Source of the DNA: Mustelus asterias | Lineage: Eukaryota | Length of the DNA: 64,000 nucleotides | Direction: 5' to 3' | Assembly (NCBI RefSeq): GCF_964213995.1 | Contig: NW_027590479.1 | Location: 62,001 to 126,000, forward strand | In this document: positions 2,459 through 64,000 of the stretch, piece after piece | Position numbering within the stretch: the first letter of the stretch is position 1 | Layout: every line of letters begins with the position of its first letter | Program-made: the position numbers and the translations under genes | The notes under the pieces: model-generated | What the model was told of the DNA's origin: nothing | The model's database searches: none | Seen by the model: the letters and a program-made list of their open reading frames with translations, nothing else

Positions 2459-5400
2459 TCAGGGTTTAATGAGTCGAAGAATTGCAGTAAGGGGAGCTTT
2501 CAGCAGATTTTTCAGCTGCTGCCTGAAGTGAGTCTGTGTCACAGCATAAATGGCAGTGTTTGTGCAGCAACTCAGGAGTTGCAGCATGAAGCCCAAATCC
2601 ATAACAAAGTAATCTAACCACACTAACCGGAAGCCCAAATTATACATCTGACCCCATATTGAAAAGACCATTAATGTTGACCATAAGAGGATGAAATTGG
2701 CTGAGATAACAAACAGTAAAATGATGGATTTCCTTCGACTCTCCATCTCTAGGTCTCTGGGAGTCTCCCCACTGCTGTGAGCCCGGAGTCTCCTGCGGGC
2801 TCTGCTGCTCACTAAAATGTGTCTGACGGTGAAAGCATTGAGCAGCAGAATCAGGGCGAATGGGACAGTCGGGGTTAGAATGTGGTGGAGGATCTCGATT
2901 GTTACCCAGACCGGAGATTCCACAACATCCATTGTGAAGCCACAAAACGAGGGGTTGTTCATCAGCCAATATCCATTTAATAACTTAAAATACCAGAAGA
3001 TGTTCTTTAAACAGCTCAGCACCGTCACTGTTCCCAGAACCACAGCCGACGATTTCTCACTGCAATATTTACTTTTCAGCTTGGGGCAGCAAATGGCCAC
3101 AAATCGATCAAAGGTGAAAGTGACGGTGAACCAGACAGAACAGTCAGTGGCTGCATACACCAAGACGGCGTGGATATTACACACGGGGAGCGAGTACAGG
3201 AAAGAAAACTGTTCCCAATAAACAATGGGAATGTGTCTCAATATCAGGTCGAGGATAACGACCAGCAGATCCCCCACTGACATGGCCACCAGGTAACGAG
3301 TGACACATTTGGACAGACCACAGTTTCTGCTCATCAGTGTCACAATTGTGATTATGTTCACTGTCAGGAAGGAAAATAAAGAATGAAATTAGATATGATT
3401 CAGGGGAAGAAATTACAATTCAGACTGAGGACGGGTGAAAATAGAAATAATGTGCACAGACACAGAATAATTAAATCTATGCTTTTAGAAAATCCAGCAC
3501 GTCTTTTGCAGCCTGTGAGAGGAAAGTGGAGTACCTGGAGGCAACCCCCACAGACACGGGGAGAAGGTCCAAACTCCACACAGACAGTGACTCACGCCTG
3601 GAATTGAACCCAGGTCCCTGATGCTGATAGTCAGCAGTGCTAACCACTGTGTCACCATTCTGCTCCATGGTAGCGACACAATGGTATACACTTGAGTGAG
3701 AGTTTTCCGGGGAGTCCACAACATTGACCCTCACTCAGCTACGGGTGAATAGCCCCTCTACCTTGTGGGGGATTTGGAGGGTAAGAAGGCTGAGGGAGTA
3801 AACCCTGTCAGAAAAGCCGGAGTGGAGTACTGTAGGTGGTTATCTGTCGTCTCTCAGACAGCTTACTGACAACCCCTGCAGCAGAGCTGGTACCAAACAG
3901 TACTGGCTTCACCCTTGCCTCTGGACAATACTAAAAGTTGGCAGAGGGAGATCCTGATGCCTCAACAGTTCCGACTCTATTATACTTACACAGGACTGTA
4001 CCCTGGAGAGGAGACCACAGCATTGTGGCCACCGGTAGCACAACACAGGAAGAAACAGTAATCTCACACTCGATTGGCACAGAACACAACTACCAGGGTT
4101 TGCTTTCAACAGTGGGAGAAAACTTCAGGGTTCAGTGAATAGCTACTGTCTCGAGTGCCCAGTGCGTTTGCTGCTCTCCCACTATGGCCTACTGGACCAC
4201 TGAAGCTTAGTGAGTCCTCTCTCAGCAGGAAAGTTGCTAATCTATGCACGAAGTAAGAAAAACTCAAACCAAGGCCGGGACCAAAGAAAAGCCAAGCGGT
4301 CTGCCTTAATGACTATCGTCCGGTGACTCGAACATTCAATATTATGAAATGCATCAAAGATTAGTCATGGCATAAATCAAATCCAGCCCCCCAGATTGTC
4401 TGGATCCACTACAGTTCACCTACCGCCACAACGTCCACAGACGCCATCTCCCTCACCCTACAGTGAACCCTGGAACACAGACTCGTGTTTATCGACTTCA
4501 GCTCATAATAAGAACATAAGAAATAGGAGCAGGAGTAGGCCATCTAGCCCCTCGAGCCTGCCCCGCCATTCAATAAGATCATGGCTGATCTGACGTGGAT
4601 CAGTACCACTTACCCGCCTGATCCCCATAACCCTTAATTCCCTTACCGCTCAGGAATCCATCCATCCGCGCTTTAAACATATTCAGCGAGGTAGCCTCCA
4701 CCACCTCAGTGGGCAGAGAATTCCAGAGATTCACCACCCTCTGGGAGAAGAAGTTCCTCCTCAACTCTGTCTTAAACCGACCCCCCTTTATTTTGGGGCT
4801 GTGTCCTCTAGTTTTAACTTCCTTACTAAGTGGAAAGAATCTCTCCGCCTCCACCCTATCCAGCCCCCGCATTATCTTATAAGTCTCCATCAGATCCCCC
4901 CTCATCCTTCTAAACTCCAACGAGTACAAACCCAATCTCCTCAGCCTCTCCTCATAATCCAAACCCCTCATCTCCGGTATCAACCTGGTGAACCTTCTCT
5001 GCACTCCCTCCAATGCCAATATATCCTTCCTCATATAAGGGGACCAATACTGCACACAGTATTCCAGCTGCGGCCTCACCAATGCCCTGTACAGGTGCAT
5101 CAAGACATCCCTGCTTTTATATTCTATCCCCCTCGCAATATAGGCCAACATCCCATTTGCCTTCTTGATCACCTGTTGTACCTGCAGACTGGGCTTTTGC
5201 GTCTCATGCACAAGGACCCCCAGGTCCCTTTGCACGGTAGCATGTTTTAATTTGTTTCCATTGAGATAGTAATCCCATTTGTTATTATTTCCTCCAAAGT
5301 GTATAACCTCGCATTTCTCAACGTTATACTCCATTTGCCATATCCTCGCCCACTCACTCAGCCTGTCCAAATCTCTCTGCAGATCTTCTCCGTCCTCCAC

Positions 5401-8400: not shown

Positions 8401-9610
8401 TTGCGTGTGTCTATATTGTCTTTACCAGTATGCATGTGTGTTTGTGTGTGAGCAACAGAGTACCTGACGAGTATTCCAAAGTGTGCGTTATTCTGGAGTG
8501 TTACAGCAATTTTGGATCTTGAATTTGTGTGTGTGCGAGTAAGTGTCTAATCTGATTGCTTCTATCAGTAAATGTCTGTATTAATATATGTGCGTTTGAG
8601 TGTGTCTGTGTGTTTGTGTTCCTGTGACTCTAGGAGAGTTTGTGATGGTACAAGGGATAGCGTTGCTGCCTCATAGCACTAGGGGCCCTGGATCAATTCC
8701 AGTCTTGGCTGCTGTCTGTGCAGAGTCTGCACATTCTCCCTGTGTCTGCGTGAGTTTCCTCCAGGTGCTCCGGTTTCCTCCCACTCTCTGAAAGTTGTGC
8801 TGGTTAGGTGCATTGGCCATGCTAAATTCTCCCTCAGTGTACCTGAACAGGTGCTGGAGTGTGGCGACTCGGGGATTTTTATAGTAACTTCATTGCAATG
8901 TTAATGTTCGCATACTTGTGACACTGACGCATAAATTTAAAATTTTATGAAATATGTTCTCTCTCTGTGGGATCCTGCTGTGCATATATGACCAATAAAA
9001 TTGATTCTGTGGCGTGGTGATTTGGTGGGTGAACTGGTGTTATATGCAGAGGGTAAAAATGATTCTGTCTCAATCTTTTACTCACGATGGAATAACGTTT
9101 GAGGTCACATGTCTATGGAAAGTCACAGCACACAGAAGACATCCTAGCCCATAGGCCCTCAGACAGTGGCTGAAAGAATTAATAACCGGAGACTGAGATT
9201 CACCAGAAACAAGAGCAGCAAGCCGAGTACAGTAAATGTCAAGGAAATCAATACAGTTGAACAGCCTTTCTAGAATTAGGAGCTGGACACAGGGGACGGG
9301 AGTTTACAGCCTCAATCTTCCCAAAGCTGCAAAATCCCACCCGTGTTCAACAGACCTTCCCATGCTCCGCCCCTCGCCTGCTCCGATTCCCGTGGCGGTC
9401 GGGCCGGTACAATTCCAGCCAGGACTTACCCGGAACACCAACAATCGCCAGGAGGGGATAGTAAATGCACTGAATCGCCTTCAGTAGATATTCAATCCGA
9501 TGAGCTGATGTTACCCACGAATAATCTGCAGTAAACCAAGAAATCCAATAGAATAAACTCCTGTCCTTGGTTGGAACATTCCAATCCATTGTTCCCAGAT
9601 TCTGATCCAT
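2459..9610 (-). CDS. GPR139-like class A GPCR #1; exon 1 9610-9430, exon 2 3360-2459; 360 aa
   Basis: Exon 1 ends ...IYYPLLAIVGVP with GTAAGT donor at 9429; TTCCTGACAG acceptor at 3361; phase-1 join gives GVP-V-NIITI; seven hydrophobic segments, DRFVAICC, TM3 and ECL2 Cys, TM7 CCTNTAIY; open frame to stop at 2459. Confidence 0.9.
3495..3660 (-). mobile_element. tRNA-derived V-SINE/HE1-like SINE, degenerate
   Basis: Head ACAGTGGTTAGCACTG..GGGTTCAATTCC and core TCTGTGTGGAGTTTGGACCTTCTCCCCGTGTCT on the minus strand. Confidence 0.8.
4275..6775 (+). mobile_element. Rex1/Babar-like LINE remnant (4275-4505 and ~6265-6775) split by a CR1 insertion
   Basis: LNDYRPV-, LDPLQF.YR- and FIDFSS-like coding before the insert; IIP.., GAPQG..LS.LLY, KFADDT and KEIVIDFRK after it. 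Confidence 0.72.
4505..6262 (-). mobile_element. Young 5'-truncated CR1 LINE with uninterrupted 523-aa RT ORF (4600-6171)
   Basis: KSPGPDG, NYRPVSLTS, DFQKAFDKVPH, PQGSVLGP and KFADDTK with no stops or frameshifts; TTCTTATG tail at ~4505-4520. Confidence 0.95.
6881..7710. repeat. GC-rich minisatellite, ~41-42 bp unit, ~20 copies
   Basis: Unit ~CCCCACTGTGCATGCAGAGAGGCAGCGAGACCCCCTCCCTA; successive copies 41 bp apart (e.g. 7203, 7244, 7285). Confidence 0.93.
8640..8940 (+). mobile_element. V-SINE-type SINE (second tail family)
   Basis: Core GCACATTCTCCCTGTGTCTGCGTGAGTTTCCTCCAGGTGCTCCGG; tail AACTTCATTGCA.TGTTAATG shared with copies at 39.0, 50.8 and 52.4 kb. Confidence 0.8.
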
Positions 9611-9694
9611 TGTTGGAACATTTCAATCCATTGTTCCCAGATTCTGATCCATTGTTGAAACATTCCAATCCATTGTTCCCCGGATTCTGATCTC
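9569..9694 (-). repeat. 21-bp tandem repeat spanning the GPCR #1 start, each unit starting with ATG
   Basis: ATGs at 9673, 9652, 9631, 9610 and 9589; units encode MDWNVST / MDQNLGT / MD*NVPT / MDQNLGT / MDWNVPT. Confidence 0.9.
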
Positions 9695-17246: not shown

Positions 17247-17778
17247 ATGCTTTTGGTCATACTGGCGGCGCTCTCGCACAGTCAGCACTGGATGATGTTC
17301 ATCAAACCGGATAAATATATTGATGGCAACTTGATTAACAATCTAAAATATCCATGCGATGCGCAGAATGGAGGTTCCACAAACTATCGCAGATACAAAC
17401 ACATTTACGTTAACACTTGATATTTCATTCTTCTGCCTTTCCAGACGGGCTGTGCGTAGATCCAGTAACTCAGTCACCGGTGACAATAACCGCATCGGAA
17501 AGGGGCTTTGGCGCAGTTACATTGTAATTAGAGAGAAAAGGATATGCACAGCATGCAATGGTATCAGCAGAAACCGGCACAGCCACCGACATGGATTATT
17601 TCCAAAATATTAACAATGAAGGAAGATAAAGTTTCAGGACGATATCTGGCGATAGCTAACAAGTCTAATCAGAACGGTTACCTTAATATCAGCCACCTTC
17701 AGTGTGGGGGACGGGGCTGTCAATTACTGTGCAATTAGGCACAACGTTAGATTACAGTTAAAACCCCGTACAAAGACC
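17247..17778 (+). pseudogene. TCR alpha/delta-type V pseudogene #1 (leader 17247-17280, V exon 17445-17739, 23-RSS 17740-17778)
   Basis: Leader MLLVILAALSH + GT donor; TTCCAG acceptor; DPVTQSP..LHCN*..MQWYQQKPAQPP..NYCAIR with two frameshifts and a stop; CACAACG-23 bp-ACAAAGACC. Confidence 0.85.
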
Positions 17779-18239
17779 TCAGCCATTTTCTACAGGTCCA
17801 TTAAGTTTGCTTCTGCGAGAATGGTTTGTCCCCGGGTTCACGAAGGCAGTCAGATCTATTTATCGGGCATTTTGTCCTGATTGAGATCGGCAAAGAAGCA
17901 GTTTGGGAAATCCCCATGCTGCGATTTACATAGTAAGCACGAACCAGGAATATCATCAGCAGGGTGAACTCAGGTGAAAATATGGCAGGAAATTACAGGC
18001 TGTTCTTTCAGAATTGCTAGCTCAAATACCACGACCCCCCCCCCCCCCCCAGACACCGAATCTCCGGTACACTTGGAGTATGCTAAATACTAATTGGATA
18101 AAAATCTTAAGTGCTTAACAAATGAGATGTAGAATAACTGCCACATAGACTCACCAAACAACACGACTATTATTATAAATCCGGGACACAGATGCCTACC
18201 CATCAGCACGAAGATAGTCGATTCTCACAGCTGACATTG

Positions 18240-19366: not shown

Positions 19367-19624
19367 TAAGACAATGCAGTATCATCCTTAAATTAAAGAA
19401 TGCGGATGATTTTCTCATCACAAAACCCACTCTCACTGAGTGACTGCTTCTGCAATCGGATAAGTTATGCCCTGACTGTCAATATGTCTGAGCAAAGCCG
19501 CTGTCAGGAATTGCAAAGCCCTGACAACCGCGCTCACATACTCCATTTCCTGTTCTCGTTCTGACATGTCTTGCCTGCAGTGTGCTGTTTATTTGATCGC
19601 TACGGCAACTGTAAACAGGGGTGA

Positions 19625-20121
19625 GGTTTTTGTACAGTGACTGCCGTCTTTCCTCTCAGTGTGGGCTCTATCGCACAGTAATATAAAGCGGTATCCGTGC
19701 TCTCCGTGTTTTCAATTATCAACTGGCTCGATTTGTCCGCAGTGGAAAGTTCCAATTCGAATCGGTCCTTTCTCTCTTTGCTATCCGAGAATCTACGTAT
19801 CATCCACTGCAGACCTTGACCGGGTTTTTGTCTGTACCGATACATTCTGTAAATGCTGGACATATCATAGCTGCAGTTTAGCCGCACCGAATCCCCGCTC
19901 TGGGCTGTTCTGGCTATGGGAGTTTGTGAAACTTAGTCCGAACGACACCGATCTATAAAAAAAAACATTTAGTCAATTAGGCACTGGAGCAAAATGTATT
20001 TAAATAGCAGTCTCGACACGTTATAGAGTAAATTTCTTGCACTTAGAACCATAATAAAATGGAACAGACTCATTTGCACCGTGTAATACAATAAAAATGT
20101 CAATCGGAAAATGGAGCACAT
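19625..20121 (-). pseudogene. TCR alpha/delta-type V pseudogene #2 (V exon 19952-19664; 23-RSS 19663-19625; putative leader from 20121)
   Basis: T-rich TATAG acceptor; RCRSD*VSQTP..SVRLNCSY..MYRYRQKPGQGLQW..DTALYYCAIE; in-frame TAA and conserved Trp changed to Arg; CACACTG-23 bp-ACAAAAACC; leader donor not canonical. Confidence 0.9.
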
Positions 20122-38771: not shown

Positions 38772-39540
38772 AGTTTTCCTACGGCTGTGGGAATGTTTTC
38801 TATCACTGTGAGACTGAAAGCGCAGTAATACGCAGCAGAGTCAGTCCACTACAGACCCAATGTATTTAAACTAGTCACTTTTTTCCCACTCTGGAGTTGC
38901 TGCAAAATCTGCTTTATCCTCAGTATCCCAGGAGCTTTTACTCACGATAAATTCCGTTTGTAGATCTGGGAGCTGTCGATACCAATCTAAATAAAGTTTA
39001 GATTCATTTATTTGTCAGAAGTAATGTTTGCATTAACACTGAAATGAAGTTACTGTGGAATCCCCTCGGTCGCCACACTCCGGCGGCTGTTCGGGTCAAT
39101 GCACCTAACCAGGACGTCTTTCAGAATGTGGGAGGAAACCACAGCACGCAGATGAAACCCACGCAGACACGGGGAGAACGTGCAAACTCCACACAGACAG
39201 TGACCCAAGCCAGGAATCAAACCCGCGTCCCTGGTCCTGTGAAGCACTGTGCTACCCTGCCGCCAGTGCCAGCAATAATAGTTGCTGGCTGTGGCATCAA
39301 AGGTGCAGGTCATTGTCACCGCTTCTCCTTGTGCCTTAACATCTGAGGAGCGTCGCTGAGTCACAGAATCTTAGTTAGATCTGGAGAGAGAAGAAATATA
39401 ATCACATCTGAACAGTTCAGGCTATAGGGTGCTAAGATTTGAACCGTGCTTGATAAATGCGAGAAAAGATTAAATGTATTTAATCTCCAAGCACCTGCTC
39501 GGAATGATCCGCACACAACCCAGATGCTGAGCAGCCGCAT
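38772..39540 (-). pseudogene. TCR delta/alpha-type V pseudogene #3 (leader 39540-39495; V 39380-38811 split by a SINE; 23-RSS 38810-38772)
   Basis: 46-nt leader MRLLSIWVVCGSFRA + GT; TCTCTCCAG acceptor; DSVTQ..GEAVTMTCTFDA..NYY[SINE]LDWYRQLP..DKADFA..DSAAYYCAFS; CACAGTG-23 bp-AGGAAAACT; frameshifts and stops. Confidence 0.9.
38993..39272 (-). mobile_element. V-SINE inserted in V pseudogene #3
   Basis: GGCAGGGTAGCACAGTG head, V-SINE core and tail matching 8640-8940. Confidence 0.88.
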
Positions 39541-42891: not shown

Positions 42892-45800
42892 ATGCATGGA
42901 CCAGCGAATGGCCCTTTCTATGCCGTTTACTATCCCGTTCTCGCTGCAGTTGGCATTCCAGGTAATTTTTTAATTCCAAAAAGAACTTTGTTTTTGTTCG
43001 CGATGATTATATTGGTTGCATTGTGATGTCTCGACAGAATAGAATGGAGTGAATATTAATCATTCATGTAACTTCTCATGTTCAATAACACTTGTTCTTG
43101 TTAGAAATATCGAAATGATTTGGAGGAAAATTTAACTGGTTTGATTCGTAAGTTTGCAGGCGACACAAAGATTGGTGGAATTGTGGATAGGGATGATGAC
43201 TGTCAGAGGATGCATCAGGATATAGATTTGTTGGAGACCTGGGCAGAGAGATGGTAGATGGAGTTCATAGAACATAGAACAGTACAGCACAGAACAGGCC
43301 CTTCGGCCCAAGATCAAGCTATCCCACTCCCTATCATCCTGGTGTGCTCCATGTGCCTATCCAATAACCGCTTAAATGTTCCTAAAGTGTCTGACTCCAC
43401 TATCACTGCAGGCAGTCCATTCCACACCCCAACCACTCTCCGCGTAAAGAACCTACCTCTGATATCCTTCCTGTATCTCCCACCACGAACCCTATAGTTA
43501 TGCCCCCTTGTAATAGCTCCATCCACCCGAGGAAATAGACTTTGAACGTTCACTCTATCTATCCCCTTCATCATTTTATAAACCTCTATTAAGTCTCCCC
43601 TCAGCCCCCTCCGCTCCAGAGAGAACAGCCCGAGCTCCCTCAACCTTTCCTCATAAGACCTACCCTCCAAACCAGGCAGCATTCTGGTAAATCTCCTCTG
43701 CACTCTTTCCAGCGCTTCCACATCCTTCTTATAGTGAGGTGACCAGAACTGCCCAAAATATTCCAAATGTGGTCTCACCAAGGTCCTGTACAGTTGCAGC
43801 ATAACCCCATGGCTCTTAAACTCCAACCCCCTGTTAATAAAAGCTAACACACTATAGGCCTTCTTCACAGCTCTATCCACTTGAGTGGCAACCTTTAGAG
43901 ATCTGGGGATATGAACTCCAAGATCTCTCTGTTCCTCCACACTCTTCGGAACCCTACCTTTGACCCTGTAATCCACATTTAAATTAGTCCTACCAAAATG
44001 AATCACCTCACATTTATCAGGGTTAAACTCCGGAGAAATGTGAGGTAATGCAGAAAGTTCAATCCGGAGAAATGTGAGGTAATGCATTTTGGAAGGTCTG
44101 ATAAAGTTGGGAAATATACAGTAAATGGCTGATCCCTTAAGAGTATTGATAGGCAGAGTAATCTGGGTATACAGCTACGCAGGTCACTGAAAGTGGCAAC
44201 GCAGGTGGAGAAGGTAGTCAAGATGGCATATGGCATGCTTGCTTTCATCAGCCAGGGCATTCAGTTGAAAAATTGGCAAGTCATATTGCAGTCTTATTGA
44301 ATCTTAGTTAGGCCGCACTTGGGAAATAATGTTCAATTCTGTTCGCCACACTACCAGAAGGATGTGGAGTCATTGGAGAGGGTACAGAAAAGACTTTCGA
44401 AAATGTTGCCTGGAAGGAAGGGCATTAGCTATGAGGAGAGGTTGGAGAAACTTGGTTTGTTCTCACTGCAACGACGGAGGCTGAGGGGCGACCTGATAGT
44501 CGTCTAAAGGATTATGAGGGTCATGGACAGAGTAGATAATCAGAAGGTTCTTCCCAGGGCACAAGAGTCAATTACTAGGAGGCATAGGTTTACGGTGTGA
44601 AGGGCAAATATTAAAGGACATTTACGAGGCAAATTCTCTACACAGAGAGTGGTGGGTGCCTGGAACTCGCTGCCAGGTGAGGTAGTGGAAACAGGTGCAA
44701 CCGTGACTTTTAAGTGGCGTCTTGACAAGTACATGAATAGGATGGGAATAGAGGGATAATGTTCCCAGATTGGTCGGGTATTTTTTTCAGTTCAGTCGGG
44801 CAGCATGGCCGGTGCAGGCTTTTAGGGCCGCAGTGCCTGCTCTTGTCCTGTAATTTTCTTTGTTCTTTGTTATTTGTTCTTAAAACGTGAAACCTTCTGG
44901 TGTAGATCTTCTGTTAAATATGAGGTTTGTGGGCTTCAATTCAAACGATAATGCCCTGACCAGGATCCGAAAAGAAAGGCCTAATGTTTGGAATCAGATT
45001 TTCAACATTTTTAACCCTCCCTTACAGCCAATTTGATGGCTATCGTGATCCTATCCAGAGGACGGTGTGGACTGTCCCAGTGCATCACCTACTACCTGGT
45101 GGCAATCGCGGTGACTGATTTCCTGGTTATGATTTCTGCTGTCATCCTCAACCGGATTGGTGGCATTTACTTTCGATATAGTGTCCTCTCCACCACCCCC
45201 GGGTGCACGGTCAGCAGCGTCCTGGTATATACCACCCGTGATGGGTCCGTCTGGCTGACTGTAGCCTTCACCATCGACCGTTTTGTGGCCATCTGCTGCC
45301 AGAGCCTGAAGACCAGATACTGCACCGAGAAAACAGCATTGCTGGTTATCGGAATAGTCTGTGCACTGAGCTGTGTCAAAAACATCCCTTTCTTCTTCAC
45401 CTATCAGCCCTTGTATATCCTAGACGGGGTGCCTTGGTTCTGTGATATCAAGTCCACCTTCTACACGTTAACCATCTGGCAGGCCTATCTCTGGCTAGAC
45501 CGCATATTAACACCATTGTTTCCATTCTTCCTGATCCTGCTGCTCAACGCTCTGACTGTGAGGCACATCTTAGCAGCCAGCAGGGCCCGCAGGAGACTCC
45601 GGGGTTCCGAGAGTCGGGGAGACATGGAGATGGAAAACCGCAAGCGGTCTATTGTCCTGCTTTTCGCCATCTCCCTCAGCTTCCTCCTCCTGTGGGTCAT
45701 ATATGTCGGTCATTTCCTCTACGTACAGATTTCGGGTGAGCCATACTTCACCGGCCTGGATTTCAATGACCCGCAGTACATCCTTCAGGAGACGACCAAC

Positions 45801-45929
45801 ATGCTGCAACTACTTAGCTCCTGTACTAACATCTTCATTTACGCAGTGATTCAGACCAGATTCAGGGAAGAGATCAAGAACCTGTTGATGTCTCCGTTCG
45901 CCACCCTCAAAGGTTTTCTGAAACGGTGA
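42892..45929 (+). CDS. GPR139-like class A GPCR #2; exon 1 42892-42961, exon 2 45028-45929; 323 aa
   Basis: MHGPANGPFYAVYYPVLAAVGIP + GTAAT donor at 42962; CCCTTACAG acceptor at 45027; phase-1 join GIP-A-NLMAI; DRFVAICC, TM3 and ECL2 Cys, SCTNIFIY; open frame; AATAAA at 46045. Confidence 0.92.
43110..44880 (+). mobile_element. Degenerate CR1 (host) in the GPCR #2 intron
   Basis: RT-like coding at 43110-43266, resuming at ~44031-44880; TTCTTTG tail. Confidence 0.82.
43266..44030 (-). mobile_element. Younger CR1 3' fragment nested antisense in the host CR1
   Basis: Open ORF 43314-44087 (EFNPDKCEVIHFG..VWNGLP); CATAGAACATAGAAC tail. Confidence 0.92.
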
Positions 45930-58465: not shown

Positions 58466-58954
58466 ATGAGGTCGACGATTTCTCTCAGTTTGTTGCTGAC
58501 TTTCTTATCCGGTGAGCAGATTTATTGTCCAAGCCTCTCACTGTTACTGTCTCATTGTTATTTTATCTATGGAATGTTGCAGAGTCAGCAATCATTTCAC
58601 CAGGATTAATCCTCTTGTTTTTTGATATATTTGTACAGGTGTCCAGTCGGAGATTATGTTAGCTCAGCCAAAAGCAGAGCCCGGGCATCCCGGAGGCTCC
58701 GTGAGACTGACCAGCAAAACCTACGGGTTCAATCTCGGTAGCGCTCACATGCACTGGATCCGACAGGTTCCCGGAGAGGCGCCGGAGTGGTTGGTTTACG
58801 ACCAAACTTCATCAAGCAACCTGTACGCCCCAGGGATTCAGAATCGATTTACTCCCTCCAAAGACACTTCAACCAACATCTTCTCTTTGGCCGTAACTGA
58901 CCTGAAGACCCAAGACACCGCCATCTATTACTGTGCAGTAGACCATGGGGGTAT
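58466..58954 (+). CDS. IGHV: Immunoglobulin heavy-chain (IgM-type) V segment, apparently germline-joined to D (leader 58466-58511; exon 58639-58954)
   Basis: [15 protein letters not shown] + GTGAG donor; TACAG acceptor; [50 protein letters not shown]; open frame; first Cys replaced by Ser (AGC 58713-58715). Confidence 0.92.
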
Positions 58955-58982
58955 CACAGCATTAACTGCCAACACAAAAGTC
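58955..58982 (+). other. 12-bp-spacer recombination signal sequence
   Basis: CACAGCA-TTAACTGCCAAC-ACAAAAGTC. Confidence 0.88.
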
Positions 58983-59309
58983 CCCTCAGCGCGTATTAAG
59001 TGAGGCTAGGTCAGTGTCGCTTTTACAGTCCAACTCTATTTACAGTGAAGTACTGTTTATGTTCAACTCTGTTCAAATAACACAGTTTAACATGGGAGAT
59101 CTGTGATAACCATTCAATTATCAGTCGGTATTTTCAATAACATGTTCATGTGACACTCTGTGAAATAGAAAAGATTCCGATCATTTATGGAGAGCGAATG
59201 GTACTAAAAATACAATTATAATTTCATGAAAATTCATTGTGAATTTACTTTGCCGCAAGATTATGAATATTTTTTTAAAAGGTGGTTTATGTCGTTTTTG
59301 TGCAGATCC

Positions 59310-59396
59310 GGTTATTGAATCACCCAGCCCAGGGGGTGTAACACAGTGATCCTATGGACGACTGGGGACAAGGGACCATGTTGACGGTGACTGCAG
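59310..59396 (+). other. IGHJ: IgH J segment (59349-59396) with 23-bp RSS (59310-59348)
   Basis: GGTTATTGA-23 bp-CACAGTG, then PMDDWGQGTMLTVTA and phase-1 GTATGA donor at 59397. Confidence 0.92.
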
Positions 59397-60219
59397 GTAT
59401 GAACCATAGATTTATTTGCTAAATATTATATTTGAGTCATTGTTTTACATATTTTTTCTTTATTTCTCAAATCTTCCGATCACTGAATTGTGACTTGGTG
59501 AATCCACTACTGAGATTTAATTGCGAGATTTCGTAGAACCATAGAACCATAGAAAATTACAGCTCAGAAACAGGCCTTTTGGCCCCTCTTGTCTGTGCCG
59601 AACCATTTTTTGCTTAGTCCCACTGACCTATAGAACCAAACCAAATCATGTGATTTATTGTAAAGGAGGTACAGAATTACTCTGTCTCTTGACAAAAGGT
59701 GCTACTGAGGGATTCAGGTTCAAGTTGTTGTGATTTTTATATTTATTTGCTGAGGATACTGCATGGCCATCTGCCCAGCCGTTTGGCGAATTTACAATGA
59801 TTAATCTCGATGGTATTTAATGGTTGTGGGTTGTACCATCTAATACACAAGGGTTTGAAATATAACCCAAGATTAACAAAAAAAGTTAAGGTTTTTACAT
59901 TAATTTATTGAACATGTTCCTCTTACTCACAATGCTAATGCTTTTATTCGATATTGCTGTTTACTTCAACGATTCATTGACTTGGTGACGGGCAGATGTG
60001 TTGCGTTCTCGATTGAGATTCTCTTTGCAAATTTACATTTGATTCTGTTGAAAGTGTTTGTAGCTGAAGTGCTTGAGCAGTTTCTCCAGAAAATTGGCTT
60101 CAGCCTCCCAGTGATGTGCTTTGATGTTTCTTTTTCTGCTGAGGGGATTGTGAGTCTGGATTATTTTGAATAAGTCAAATTTGTGAAATGCTATTGCCTT
60201 TCTGCATTGTTTCCATATT

Positions 60220-60760
60220 AGAACATGGAAAAACTCCAGCACAAACAGGCCCTTCGGCCCACAAGTTGTGCCGAACACATCCCTACCTTCTAGACCTACC
60301 TATAACCCTCTATCCTATTAAGCTCCATGTACTCATCCAGGAGTCTCTTAAAAGACCCTATTGAGTTCGCCTCCACCACCACTGACGGGAGCCGATTCCA
60401 CTCGCCCACCAGCCTCTGTGTGAAAGACTTCCCCCTAACATCTCCCCTGTACCTACCCCCCAGCACCTTAAACCTGTGTCCTCTCGTAGCAGACATTTCC
60501 ACCCTGGGAAAAAGCCTCCGAGAGTCCACCCGATCTATGCCTCTCGACATCTTATACACCTCTATTAGGTCTCCTCTCATCCTTCGTCTCTCCAAGGAGA
60601 AAAGACCGAGCTCCCTCAGCCTACCCTCATAAGGCATGCCACTCAATCCAGGCAACATCCTTGTAAATCTCCTCTGCACCCGTTCAATCTTTTCCACATC
60701 CTTCCTATAGTGAGGCGACCAGAACTGAGCACAGTACTCCAAGTGGGGTCTGACGAGGGT
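60220..60760 (-). mobile_element. Young CR1 3' fragment
   Basis: LVRPHLEYCAQFWSPHY..EWNRLPSVVVEA; near-identical to the 28400-29650 subfamily. Confidence 0.92.
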
Positions 60761-61684
60761 GTTTGCATTGTTTAAACACGGGAGCATTGAGCGGTTATAC
60801 GCTTTGATGCTGAATACAAATAATATTCGCGCTTGCAACTGCTTGACACATGATTGTAGGCAGAAGAAAATACTTTAAGTACATTTTAAAATTTTTTTAG
60901 GTGATAACTGCAAATTAAACTGTGCCACGGTATCCGAGCAGAGATTGTTAGAGCAATCATTGCAAAGCATTTCTGCATTGTTTAATTTCGGTGACATCTG
61001 ATGTCTGCAGTTTTTACCATCTACTGAAAATATTAAGTGTTTAAATATGTTTGAACTATATTTGAAAAACGACCCAAAATGAACAGCACGTGGTAAATCT
61101 TCAATGTTACTCCGTTGGACATATTCGACCTTCTCACAATGCTGTTGCTGTTACTCCAGATTTATGTTTAGTTTGATAATTCATCGATCTGAAGATGAAT
61201 CGTTTTGCTTAGTTTGACATGTGGATGTTGTTGAAATATTACTTATTCTGTTGAATGTAAGAACTGAGCTGCTTCTCCATGAACCGAGTTTCAGTCCCTC
61301 AGTGATGTGATTTGTTGATTTTTCGCCTGAGGAGGTGATGTGTCCGGGTGACTTTGAATGTGTCCAATTTGTGAAATGGTTTGGCGTTTCTGAATTGCGC
61401 CCGCCGCGTTGTTCAAACTCACTGACACTGAGCGGTTCCAATTTTCTACCTGAATGCAGTCTGAGTATTTGAATCTACTTGAAGTACAATTATAGGCAAA
61501 TACAGGCTGGTTTCCGAAATGAAGAATAGAATTCAAGATGTGACAGAGCAATTTTTTGTCCTATTAACTTATAACAGATTAACCTAAATCGCCACAGTGA
61601 AGGGATTGTTCATATGAATGTATTTGTTTTGCAGGGAAGTTCCGACTCCATACCATTAGAGATTGAAAAGTAAAAGCTTGAAGT

Positions 61685-62145
61685 TATGGACTTTGGGACA
61701 AGGTCTCACATGGCAGGCTAGTCTGGAAAGTTAGGACCCATGGGATCCAGGGCGAGCTAGCTAATTGAATTCAAAATTGGCTCCATAGTAGGAAGCAGAG
61801 GGTGATGGTTGATGGTTGTTTCTCGGACTGGAGGCCTGTGACGAATGGTGTGCCTCAGGGGTCGGTGTTTGGACTCTTGTTATTCGTTATTTATAGAAAT
61901 GATTCAGATGTGGATGTACAAGACATCTTTCGTAAGTTTGTGGATGATACCAAATTAGAAGATATCACTGATAGCGAAGAAGGTTATAAAAAATATAGGG
62001 GGATCTTGATCAGTCAGGGAAGTGCGCCGAGGATTGGCAAATGGATTTCAATACAGATGAGCATAAGGTGTTGCATTTTGGAAAGGCAAAGCAGGGAAGG
62101 ACTAATACATTGCAAGGTAGGGCTCTCGTGAGTGTTGAGGAGACA
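61685..62145 (+). mobile_element. Degenerate CR1 RT fragment
   Basis: GCFSDWRPVTNGVPQGSV..KFVDDTK. Confidence 0.8.
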
Positions 62146-64000
62146 TCCTAACTCACCGTCAGACTCCCTCACCCTCACTCTCACTCACCCTCACTCATGC
62201 ACTCTCACTCACGCATGCTCACTCACTCACCTTCCCTTGAGCAACTCCACACACGCAACTCTCTCATCGTCATTCACCCAACCTAACGCACCCACACTCA
62301 CACACCCTCATTAACTCAGCCTCACTCACCCATCCTCATTCACTCACCCTCACACTCACCCTCATTCAGCCACCACCACTCATCCACCCTCAATCACTCA
62401 CCTTCACTTACTCACCCTCACCCACCGTCACTCAACATCATTCGTGCACTCTCACTCATGTATACTCACTCACATCCACTTACTCACCCTCACTCGCTCA
62501 ACCTTACTCATATCACTCACTCACCTTCGCGTAACCACCCTCACTCACTCACTCATGCACCCTCACACACGGACCCTCACTCTCCCACTCTCGCTCACCC
62601 ACCCTCACTCAGTCACTCAAACACCCTCATTCACTCACCCTCACACACTGTAACTGACCCACTCTCACTCGCACCGTAGCTCACCCACCCTCATCCACCC
62701 TCACACATTCACCCTCATTTAATCCCTTCACTCAGCCACCATCACTCATCCATCCTCACTCATTCACATTCACTCACTAACCTTCACATGTTCAGCTTTA
62801 CTCACACATGCTCACTTGCTCACACTCACTCGCCCACCCACACTCACACATTCGTTCACTCACCTGCCCTCGCTCACTCACCCATTCTCAGGTCACCGTC
62901 AGACTCCCTCACCCTCACTCATGCACCCTCACTCACGCATGCTCATTCACTCACCTTCACTTGCTCAACTTCGTGCACTCAACTTTACTCTCTCATCTTC
63001 ATTCACCCAACCTAACGCTCCCACAATCACACACCCTCACACACTCAGCCTCACTCACCCATCCTCACTCACTCATAGAAATCATAGAAATTATAGAAAC
63101 CCTACAGTACAGAAAGAGCCCATTCGGTCCATCGAGTCTGCACCGACCACAATCCCACCCAGGCCCTACCCCCATATCCCAACATATTTACCCACTAATC
63201 CCTCTAACCTACACATCTCAGGACAGTAAGGGCAATTTTTAGCATGGCCAATCAATCTAACCCGCACATCTTTGGACTGTGGGAGGAAAACAGAGCACCC
63301 GGAGGAAACCCACGCAGACACGAGGAGAATGTACAAATTCCACACAGGCAGTGATCCAAGCCGGGAATCGAACCCAGGTCCCTGGAGCTGTGAAGCAGCG
63401 GCGCTAACCACCGTGCTACCGTGCCGCCCCTCCACGCTCATCCTCACTCATTCATCCTCACTCACTCACCGTCGCCCATCCTCTCTCATCCGCCCTCAAT
63501 CAATCATCCTCACTCACACCTTAACTCACCCCACCTCATTCACCCATCCTCACTGGCTCAAACTTTCACACATGCACCTTCACTCTCTCACCCTCTTGCG
63601 CCTCTTCACTAACTCACCCCTTTCAATTACTCACCCTCACTCACCCTTTCTCACTCTCTCACCCACTCTCACTTGCTTTCAATGAATCCATCCCCAACCG
63701 CACTCATACTTACTGACACAATATCATTCACTCACCCTCAGCCACTCACCCTCAGTCATCCACCATTATTCAATCCACATTAATCATACTCCCTAATTTA
63801 CACACAGTCCCTCAGTCATCACCAACACCCTCACACTCTCACCATTATTTCCCCGCCTTCAATCCCGCATCCTTGCTTGTTCAGCATCATCCTTCCACCC
63901 TCAGTGACTCACCATCACCCACCCACATTCACTCAGCTACAATCACTCACTCACCATCAGTCATTCACTCACTGATATTCACTCACTTACTCATTCACTC
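62145..64000. repeat. (TCAC/CACCCT)n low-complexity satellite-like tract
   Basis: Degenerate TCAC repeats running to the window end; ~62150-62345 is repeated at ~62893-63073. Confidence 0.9.
63073..63430 (-). mobile_element. Full-length HE1/V-SINE
   Basis: GGGCGGCACGGTAGCACGGTGGTTAGC head, B box, core and (TTTCTATGA/TAA)n tail. Confidence 0.92.

Follow-up and report, generated by a model that had tools for sequence, protein, structure and literature searches.

The window analysed here is a 64 kb stretch of DNA (G000:C447:62001-126000) within a 3.68 Gb assembly, and its last few kilobases carry the 5′ part of an immunoglobulin heavy chain (IgH) cluster. The exons that lie past the window are numbered by continuing the window numbering along the same contig, C447 (Table 1). 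The cluster has the architecture of an IgM unit: leader, VH, (D) and JH come first, and the constant part, which spans 6.3-13 kb past JH, consists of four C1-set exons, a secretory tail and a transmembrane (TM) exon. The VH exon is a Pfam V-set domain (E = 5e-12) that can be aligned with antibody VH domains, and in a structure comparison the Cmu4 tail half has mostly Ig mu chains among its top matches. The initial annotation had asked whether this VH is served by Cmu or by a TCR delta constant region; by genomic layout it is Cmu, beginning 6.3 kb downstream.

Table 1. Features of the IgM-type cluster, in window numbering continued along contig C447
Feature	Position	Strand	Remarks
IgH leader exon	58466-58511	+	intact, GT donor, in-frame splice to V
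VH exon to Cys104	58639-58934	+	AG acceptor, open frame, Cys104 at 58932-58934
V end / D coding joint	58935-58954	+	20 nt
12-spacer RSS	58955-58982	+	3′ signal of D2
D2-J spacer	58983-59309	+	no D segment; 72-75% identity to paralogue D2-J spacers
JH 23-spacer RSS	59310-59348	-	nonamer 59310-59318, 23-nt spacer, heptamer 59342-59348
JH coding segment PMDDWGQGTMLTVTA	59349-59396	+	WGQG, GT donor
J-Cmu intron	59397-64000	+	runs on beyond the window end
Cmu1	65712-66008	+	C1-set
Cmu2	66210-66524	+	C1-set
Cmu3	67134-67442	+	C1-set
Cmu4 + secretory tail	68759-69150	+	C1-set; Cys to Tyr at 68842, TAG at 68920
TM exon, 3′-truncated	near 72680	+	

The V-to-JH stretch has the structure that the initial annotation had read from it. 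V continues past YYCA into a joint made up of the V end, untemplated or unassignable bases and a D2-like G-rich 3′ end, and this joint is followed directly by a recombination signal sequence (RSS) with a 12-nt spacer, composed of the heptamer CACAGCA (58955-58961) and the nonamer ACAAAAGTC (58974-58982). The 12-spacer RSS pattern has one match in the 64 kb window where 0.01 is expected, and one in 100 shuffles reached one match. The 23-RSS of JH has the heptamer CACTGTG and the nonamer TCAATAACC, with one and two mismatches to the consensus, respectively. A motif search of the stretch between V and JH found no RSS-flanked D segment, confirming that no separate D precedes this JH. The 12-RSS behind the D sequence faces the 23-RSS of JH, and the single 12/23-compatible join that had been predicted to remain is borne out.

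The identity of the 12-RSS emerges from a comparison with paralogous clusters. A genome search with the V-JH stretch gave 49 matches, the best 30 of which were compared; it is important to point out that this ranking favours loci with the query's own layout. Among these best 30 of 49, 14 loci have the unjoined layout V(23)-(12)D1(22/23)-(12)D2(12)-(23)J, matching, with a D1 spacer of 22 or 23 nt, the unrearranged shark layout given as known in the initial annotation; in one V is unjoined and followed by a single D with a 12-RSS on either side (V-DD-J type), two are VD1-D2-J, and in 13 V sits directly on the D2-J spacer, as it does here (VD-J). Over the 393 nt from the heptamer of the 12-RSS to the J heptamer, identity to the D2-J spacer is 72.0-74.6% in all 14 unjoined clusters (best 30 of 49), while the V-D1 and D1-D2 spacers of the paralogues reach 51-54%, the background of global alignment. 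The 12-RSS is therefore D2's own 3′ signal, and V's own RSS is gone together with all DNA up to D2. The heptamer variant CACAGCA is likewise that of the D2 3′ RSS in unjoined clusters. The locus thus has the full set of VD-J features: V lacks a 23-RSS and abuts D sequence, the D 3′ 12-RSS and the D-J spacer, and J keeps its 23-RSS. Other partly joined IgM layouts (V-DD-J type and VD1-D2-J) were seen at L024 (contig C91), L129 (C71 near 4.98 Mb), L028 and L029.

The 13 joined loci among the best 30 of 49 carry eight distinct junction strings, which would correspond to about seven independent VD-J joins; this count is based on distinct junctions. In a tree of 30 V rows most of the branching is unresolved, with 10 of 18 inner branches open, and the tree does not settle how many origins there were. 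A search with the D2-end pattern found no unjoined parent of the subfamily to which this locus belongs (five of five matches are joined), nor is there one among its three closest Cmu relatives, in all of which V-D-J is deleted; trimming and N addition are therefore not exactly readable. A protein homologue search with V, confined to near lengths, gave no candidate. The want of an unjoined parent, and of a junction that can be parsed base by base, leaves some room for a deletion that did not involve RAG, or for a V that natively carries a 12-RSS, but the whole idea is barely credible. The missing stretch reaches from the V coding end to a D2-like coding end whose RSS is preserved, as in a coding joint, and the same geometry recurs in the approximately seven independent junctions. 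A native 12-RSS, which the initial annotation had itself set against its reading, is rejected, since native V segments carry a 23-RSS, as seen in 15 of 15 unjoined paralogues among the best 30 of 49 matches.

How many D segments took part is a separate matter. V, D1 and D2 had been proposed to be fused and inherited as one; the V-to-D join stands and is very likely germline, but D1 cannot be demonstrated in it, as the best D1 match is no better than in shuffled sequence. Within the 20-nt junction the longest D1 match is 6 nt (p = 0.12, shuffles), and once the D2-like end is set aside it is 5 nt (p = 0.16), three of them belonging to the Ala codon of V. By contrast, D1 matches of 9-11 nt are seen in five other junction groups (p up to 0.0014), and L004/L005 again show none. 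The alignment with unjoined clusters that had been suggested for parsing V, N and D hence succeeds for the spacer, which is that of D2-J, and leaves D1 indiscernible at these p values. Because a direct V(23)-to-D2(12) join obeys the 12/23 rule, VD2-J and VDD-J are both compatible with the locus, and V-D2 would fit the junction as well as V-D1-D2.

The same junction is present on contigs C447, C160 and C770, with a single nucleotide difference that falls in a V codon. C160 is 99.9% identical to C447 over 30 kb and represents an allele or a very recent copy; C770 differs from C447 at 36 positions in 935 nt (96% identity), and its flanking blocks are 94-98% identical. Contigs from public sequencing runs bridge the junction without any difference, over 700 nt in run X1 (58861-59560) and over 372 nt in run X3, which is another sample; they contain no separate D segments, whose presence in germline reads had been named as fatal to a germline join. 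A contig of run X2 has two letters in the C770 state, run X4 has no coverage at the junction, and the matches listed for the run contigs include no alternative joint. Run depth does not equal the share of cells, and the four runs belong to one study that may include the assembled animal, thus giving weak independent support.

Somatic VDD-J intermediates are frequent in nurse shark thymocytes, as described in the part of PMC2435157 available to us; their layout is identical to that of the present locus, but their junctions are unique to each clone, whereas the junction here is common to diverged genomic duplicates. This frequency would speak for the alternative kept by the initial annotation, a rearrangement captured from lymphocyte DNA. 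Such a capture is now most improbable, the duplicate with its 4% difference nearly excluding it and run contigs from two samples carrying the junction as well. One somatic event cannot put the same junction into two diverged loci, and somatic capture is rejected on this ground; since somatic clones each have their own junction, one junction in two diverged loci also means that the join predates the duplication. Judged by sequence, the join is very likely inherited.

The cluster falls short of a functional IgM gene, which has both V cysteines, open Cmu1-4 exons and an intact TM exon. Cys23 of V is replaced by Ser (AGC, 58713-58715), a residue found in two of 30 V segments compared, both of them from this locus; Cmu4 has lost a cysteine and gained a stop, and the TM exon has no 3′ end. 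These lesions had gone unmentioned in the initial annotation, and its picture of a receptor with a mostly fixed CDR3 is not supported, because lesions in V, Cmu4 and TM disable the cluster, which is likely a pseudogene.

The lesions can be followed through a subfamily of at least six assembly copies, located on C447, C160, C770, C444, C71 (near 8.30 Mb) and C88. The Cmu4 Cys-to-Tyr change and the TAG occur together in five of the five copies that retain Cmu4, and in none of four more distant clusters checked. A Cmu1 tree of eight rows places C770, C444, C71 and C88 (support 87/87) apart from C447 and C160. Both the join and the stop occur on either side of this first split of the family, and the ancestor of all six copies therefore probably had them already, although gene conversion is possible. 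Decay appears to have continued in the copies: C770 is without Cmu2-4 and the Cmu1 acceptor, and most of V, D and J is missing from C444, C71 (near 8.30 Mb) and C88. Among copies dN/dS is 1.14-1.21 on Cmu2-4, resting on small counts (12-15 nonsynonymous and 3-4 synonymous changes), and the V exons show seven nonsynonymous to one synonymous change, again a small count; between intact clusters the ratio is 0.47-0.48. Unlike Cmu2-4, Cmu1 compared with that of C770 gives a dN/dS of 0.31, also from small counts. On the whole, the copies seem to have diverged neutrally. Both the join and the Cmu4 stop appear older than duplications that are ~2% diverged at silent sites, which makes them a dated marker, and this marker fits germline joins as neutral accidents rather than as selected fixed specificities.

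It might still be argued that the join is germline and that the unit works. It could encode a shortened chain, with V-Cmu1-3 alone or with Cmu3 spliced onto the TM exon, or it could supply its V to another cluster through gene conversion or class switching. Leader, V frame and JH are open, the frames and splice sites of Cmu1-3 are intact in the C447 copy, and Cys23 is kept in the C770 copy. However, C447 lacks Cys23, C770 lacks Cmu2-4 and the Cmu1 acceptor, and V-D-J is lost in three more copies, to which the neutral-looking changes have to be added. Likewise, expression of the joined H genes of the horn shark was not detected by Lee et al., so far as the accessible text of PMC2193156 states. 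We therefore consider a working unit very unlikely.

The most convincing explanation, and in our view a very probable one, is that of a cartilaginous-fish IgM cluster in which VH is fused to D2 and V, Cmu4 and TM are broken, with a join that likely goes back to RAG activity in a germ cell and was passed on, and a gene that is likely a pseudogene. In this scheme RAG would have cut the V(23) and D(12) signals in a germ cell with deletion of the intervening DNA, as the geometry and the available part of PMC2193156 suggest. V would have been joined to D2 either directly or via D1, with D1 trimmed away, and the resulting deletional coding joint would have been passed on. The loss of the Cmu4 cysteine and the gain of the stop would have come later, followed by duplication of the block into the at least six assembly copies, each decaying further. 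In a lymphocyte, joining of the 12-RSS to JH by RAG is probably still feasible; no normal IgM would be expected from this, because the joined product would be without the V disulfide and would meet a stop in Cmu4.

The Ig VH sits here among TCR alpha/delta-type and NAR-type V exons. The flanking V exons, which we take to be TCR alpha/delta-like from their motifs, in many cases contain stops or frame breaks, and one of them is recognized as Pfam V-set. Three such exons with 23-RSSs lie in mixed orientation at 17445-17779 (+), 19603-19932 (-) and 38780-39370 (-), the first and the last having frame breaks or stops. A pair of TCR-like V exons on C447 recurs ~156 kb apart, at about -31700/-26800 and 124450/129360, which suggests a large tandem duplication. 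Two single-exon ORFs at 2462-3388 (-) and 45015-45926 (+) have a seven-helix GPCR look, by eye only.

Approximately 44-44.7 kb downstream of the cluster follow a NAR-type V (best matches VNAR), a 23-RSS J and then another V. The NAR-type V (L034 ~8940-9650, window numbering 102940-103650) has a long fixed end and a 12-RSS, or a decayed form of it, facing the 23-RSS J. This layout is shared by 27 of 30 loci compared (L068-L097), with an unjoined V(22)-D(12)-J(23) arrangement in three of 30; these loci look like an amplified family of pre-joined NAR-TCR VD segments. Past the V that follows the cassette, three 23-RSSs stand in tandem ~61 nt apart (window numbering 106026-106148, L034-L043).

Such neighbours raise the question of whether the VD with its 12-RSS could serve T cells, by joining the 23-RSS NAR-TCR J, which lies ~44.7 kb downstream in the same orientation, and riding on a supporting V-delta. 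The TCR alpha/delta-like V exons around the cluster would suit such a use, and shark TCR delta employs IgM and IgW V exons (PMC5931798; PMC12227049, as far as available). On the other hand, the cluster's own JH is only 390 nt away, and joining is intra-cluster as a rule according to the accessible part of Hinds-Frey et al. (PMC2191167), with one inter-locus case among 58 thymic VDD-J joins in that of PMC2435157. Cys23 is lost, and no TCR J or C turned up when C447:12001-312993 was scanned for motifs. Nor is the neighbourhood special, since other contigs, for example C71, also have IgM clusters interleaved with NAR-type cassettes; linkage of IgH clusters with TCR alpha/delta, and TCR-type V segments between clusters, are described in the available text of PMC12227049. 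Use of this VD by T cells is accordingly very unlikely. The same doubt applies in equal measure to a recycling of the pre-joined VH family for T cells via the neighbouring NAR-TCR 23-RSS J, for which the C770 copy, with Cmu lost and Cys23 kept, would be the best candidate. If true, the product would be a TCR delta chain with two V domains, in which an antibody VH and its half-fixed CDR3 sit above a supporting V-delta, and hence a shark counterpart of TCR mu.

TAILV and other TCR delta-associated VH segments have no JH-Cmu of their own and rearrange to TCR delta D-J, the TCR delta D carrying a 12-RSS. Identity with this class is rejected, as the present VH has its own JH, Cmu1-4 and a 12-RSS; under the 12/23 rule, this 12-RSS would make it unable to join a TCR delta D.

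The germline-joined reading places the locus in familiar company. Partly germline-joined IgH clusters were reportedly already the subject of a 1988 paper by Kokubu. Some clusters of cartilaginous fishes are joined in the germline partly (VD-J, VD-DJ) or fully through germ-cell RAG (PMC4279169, PMC5192425), and Lee et al. distinguish rearranged, partly rearranged and unrearranged H clusters (PMC2193156); the accessible parts of all three agree with what the initial annotation had stated of such clusters and their origin. As in the partly joined VD-J, VD-DJ and VDD-J clusters of horn shark and skates, V and D are fused genomically, the D 3′ 12-RSS and the 23-RSS of JH are kept, the cluster has its own Cmu, and unjoined clusters exist alongside. 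So far as these sources reach there is no difference of kind, and the unlike details are a pseudogene family of at least six copies and a setting amid TCR V and NAR-type V exons. The nurse shark IgM1gj is likewise a germline-joined IgM-type heavy chain, but in the available account (PMC4279169) it is fully VDJ-joined, has no Cmu2 and is expressed in neonates, whereas the present cluster is broken; identity with IgM1gj is rejected, as J is unjoined and Cmu2 present. A literature search brought up no account of this very cluster, although one may exist. The cluster is an instance of a known shark antibody-gene habit and not a new system, and partial joins are locally common.

On its own, then, this is one more partly joined IgM cluster, broken and of little weight. 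The genome around it is well suited to studying RAG activity in germ cells, with about seven seemingly independent VD-J joins (best 30 of 49 loci), VD1-D2-J and V-DD-J layouts, joined NAR-type cassettes and one cluster that exists in a VDD-J as well as a VDDJ form. In this last case one V-D1-D2 junction occurs as VDD-J in L010 and L011 (C270 and C128) and within a fully joined VDDJ in L127 (C71 near 7,317,100). The VDDJ is out of frame, both its flanks are 99.6-99.8% identical to the VDD-J copies, and the D2-J spacer of ~390 nt present in L010 and L011 is cleanly deleted; from its sequence, it may represent either a second, recent join in the germline or a captured somatic rearrangement.
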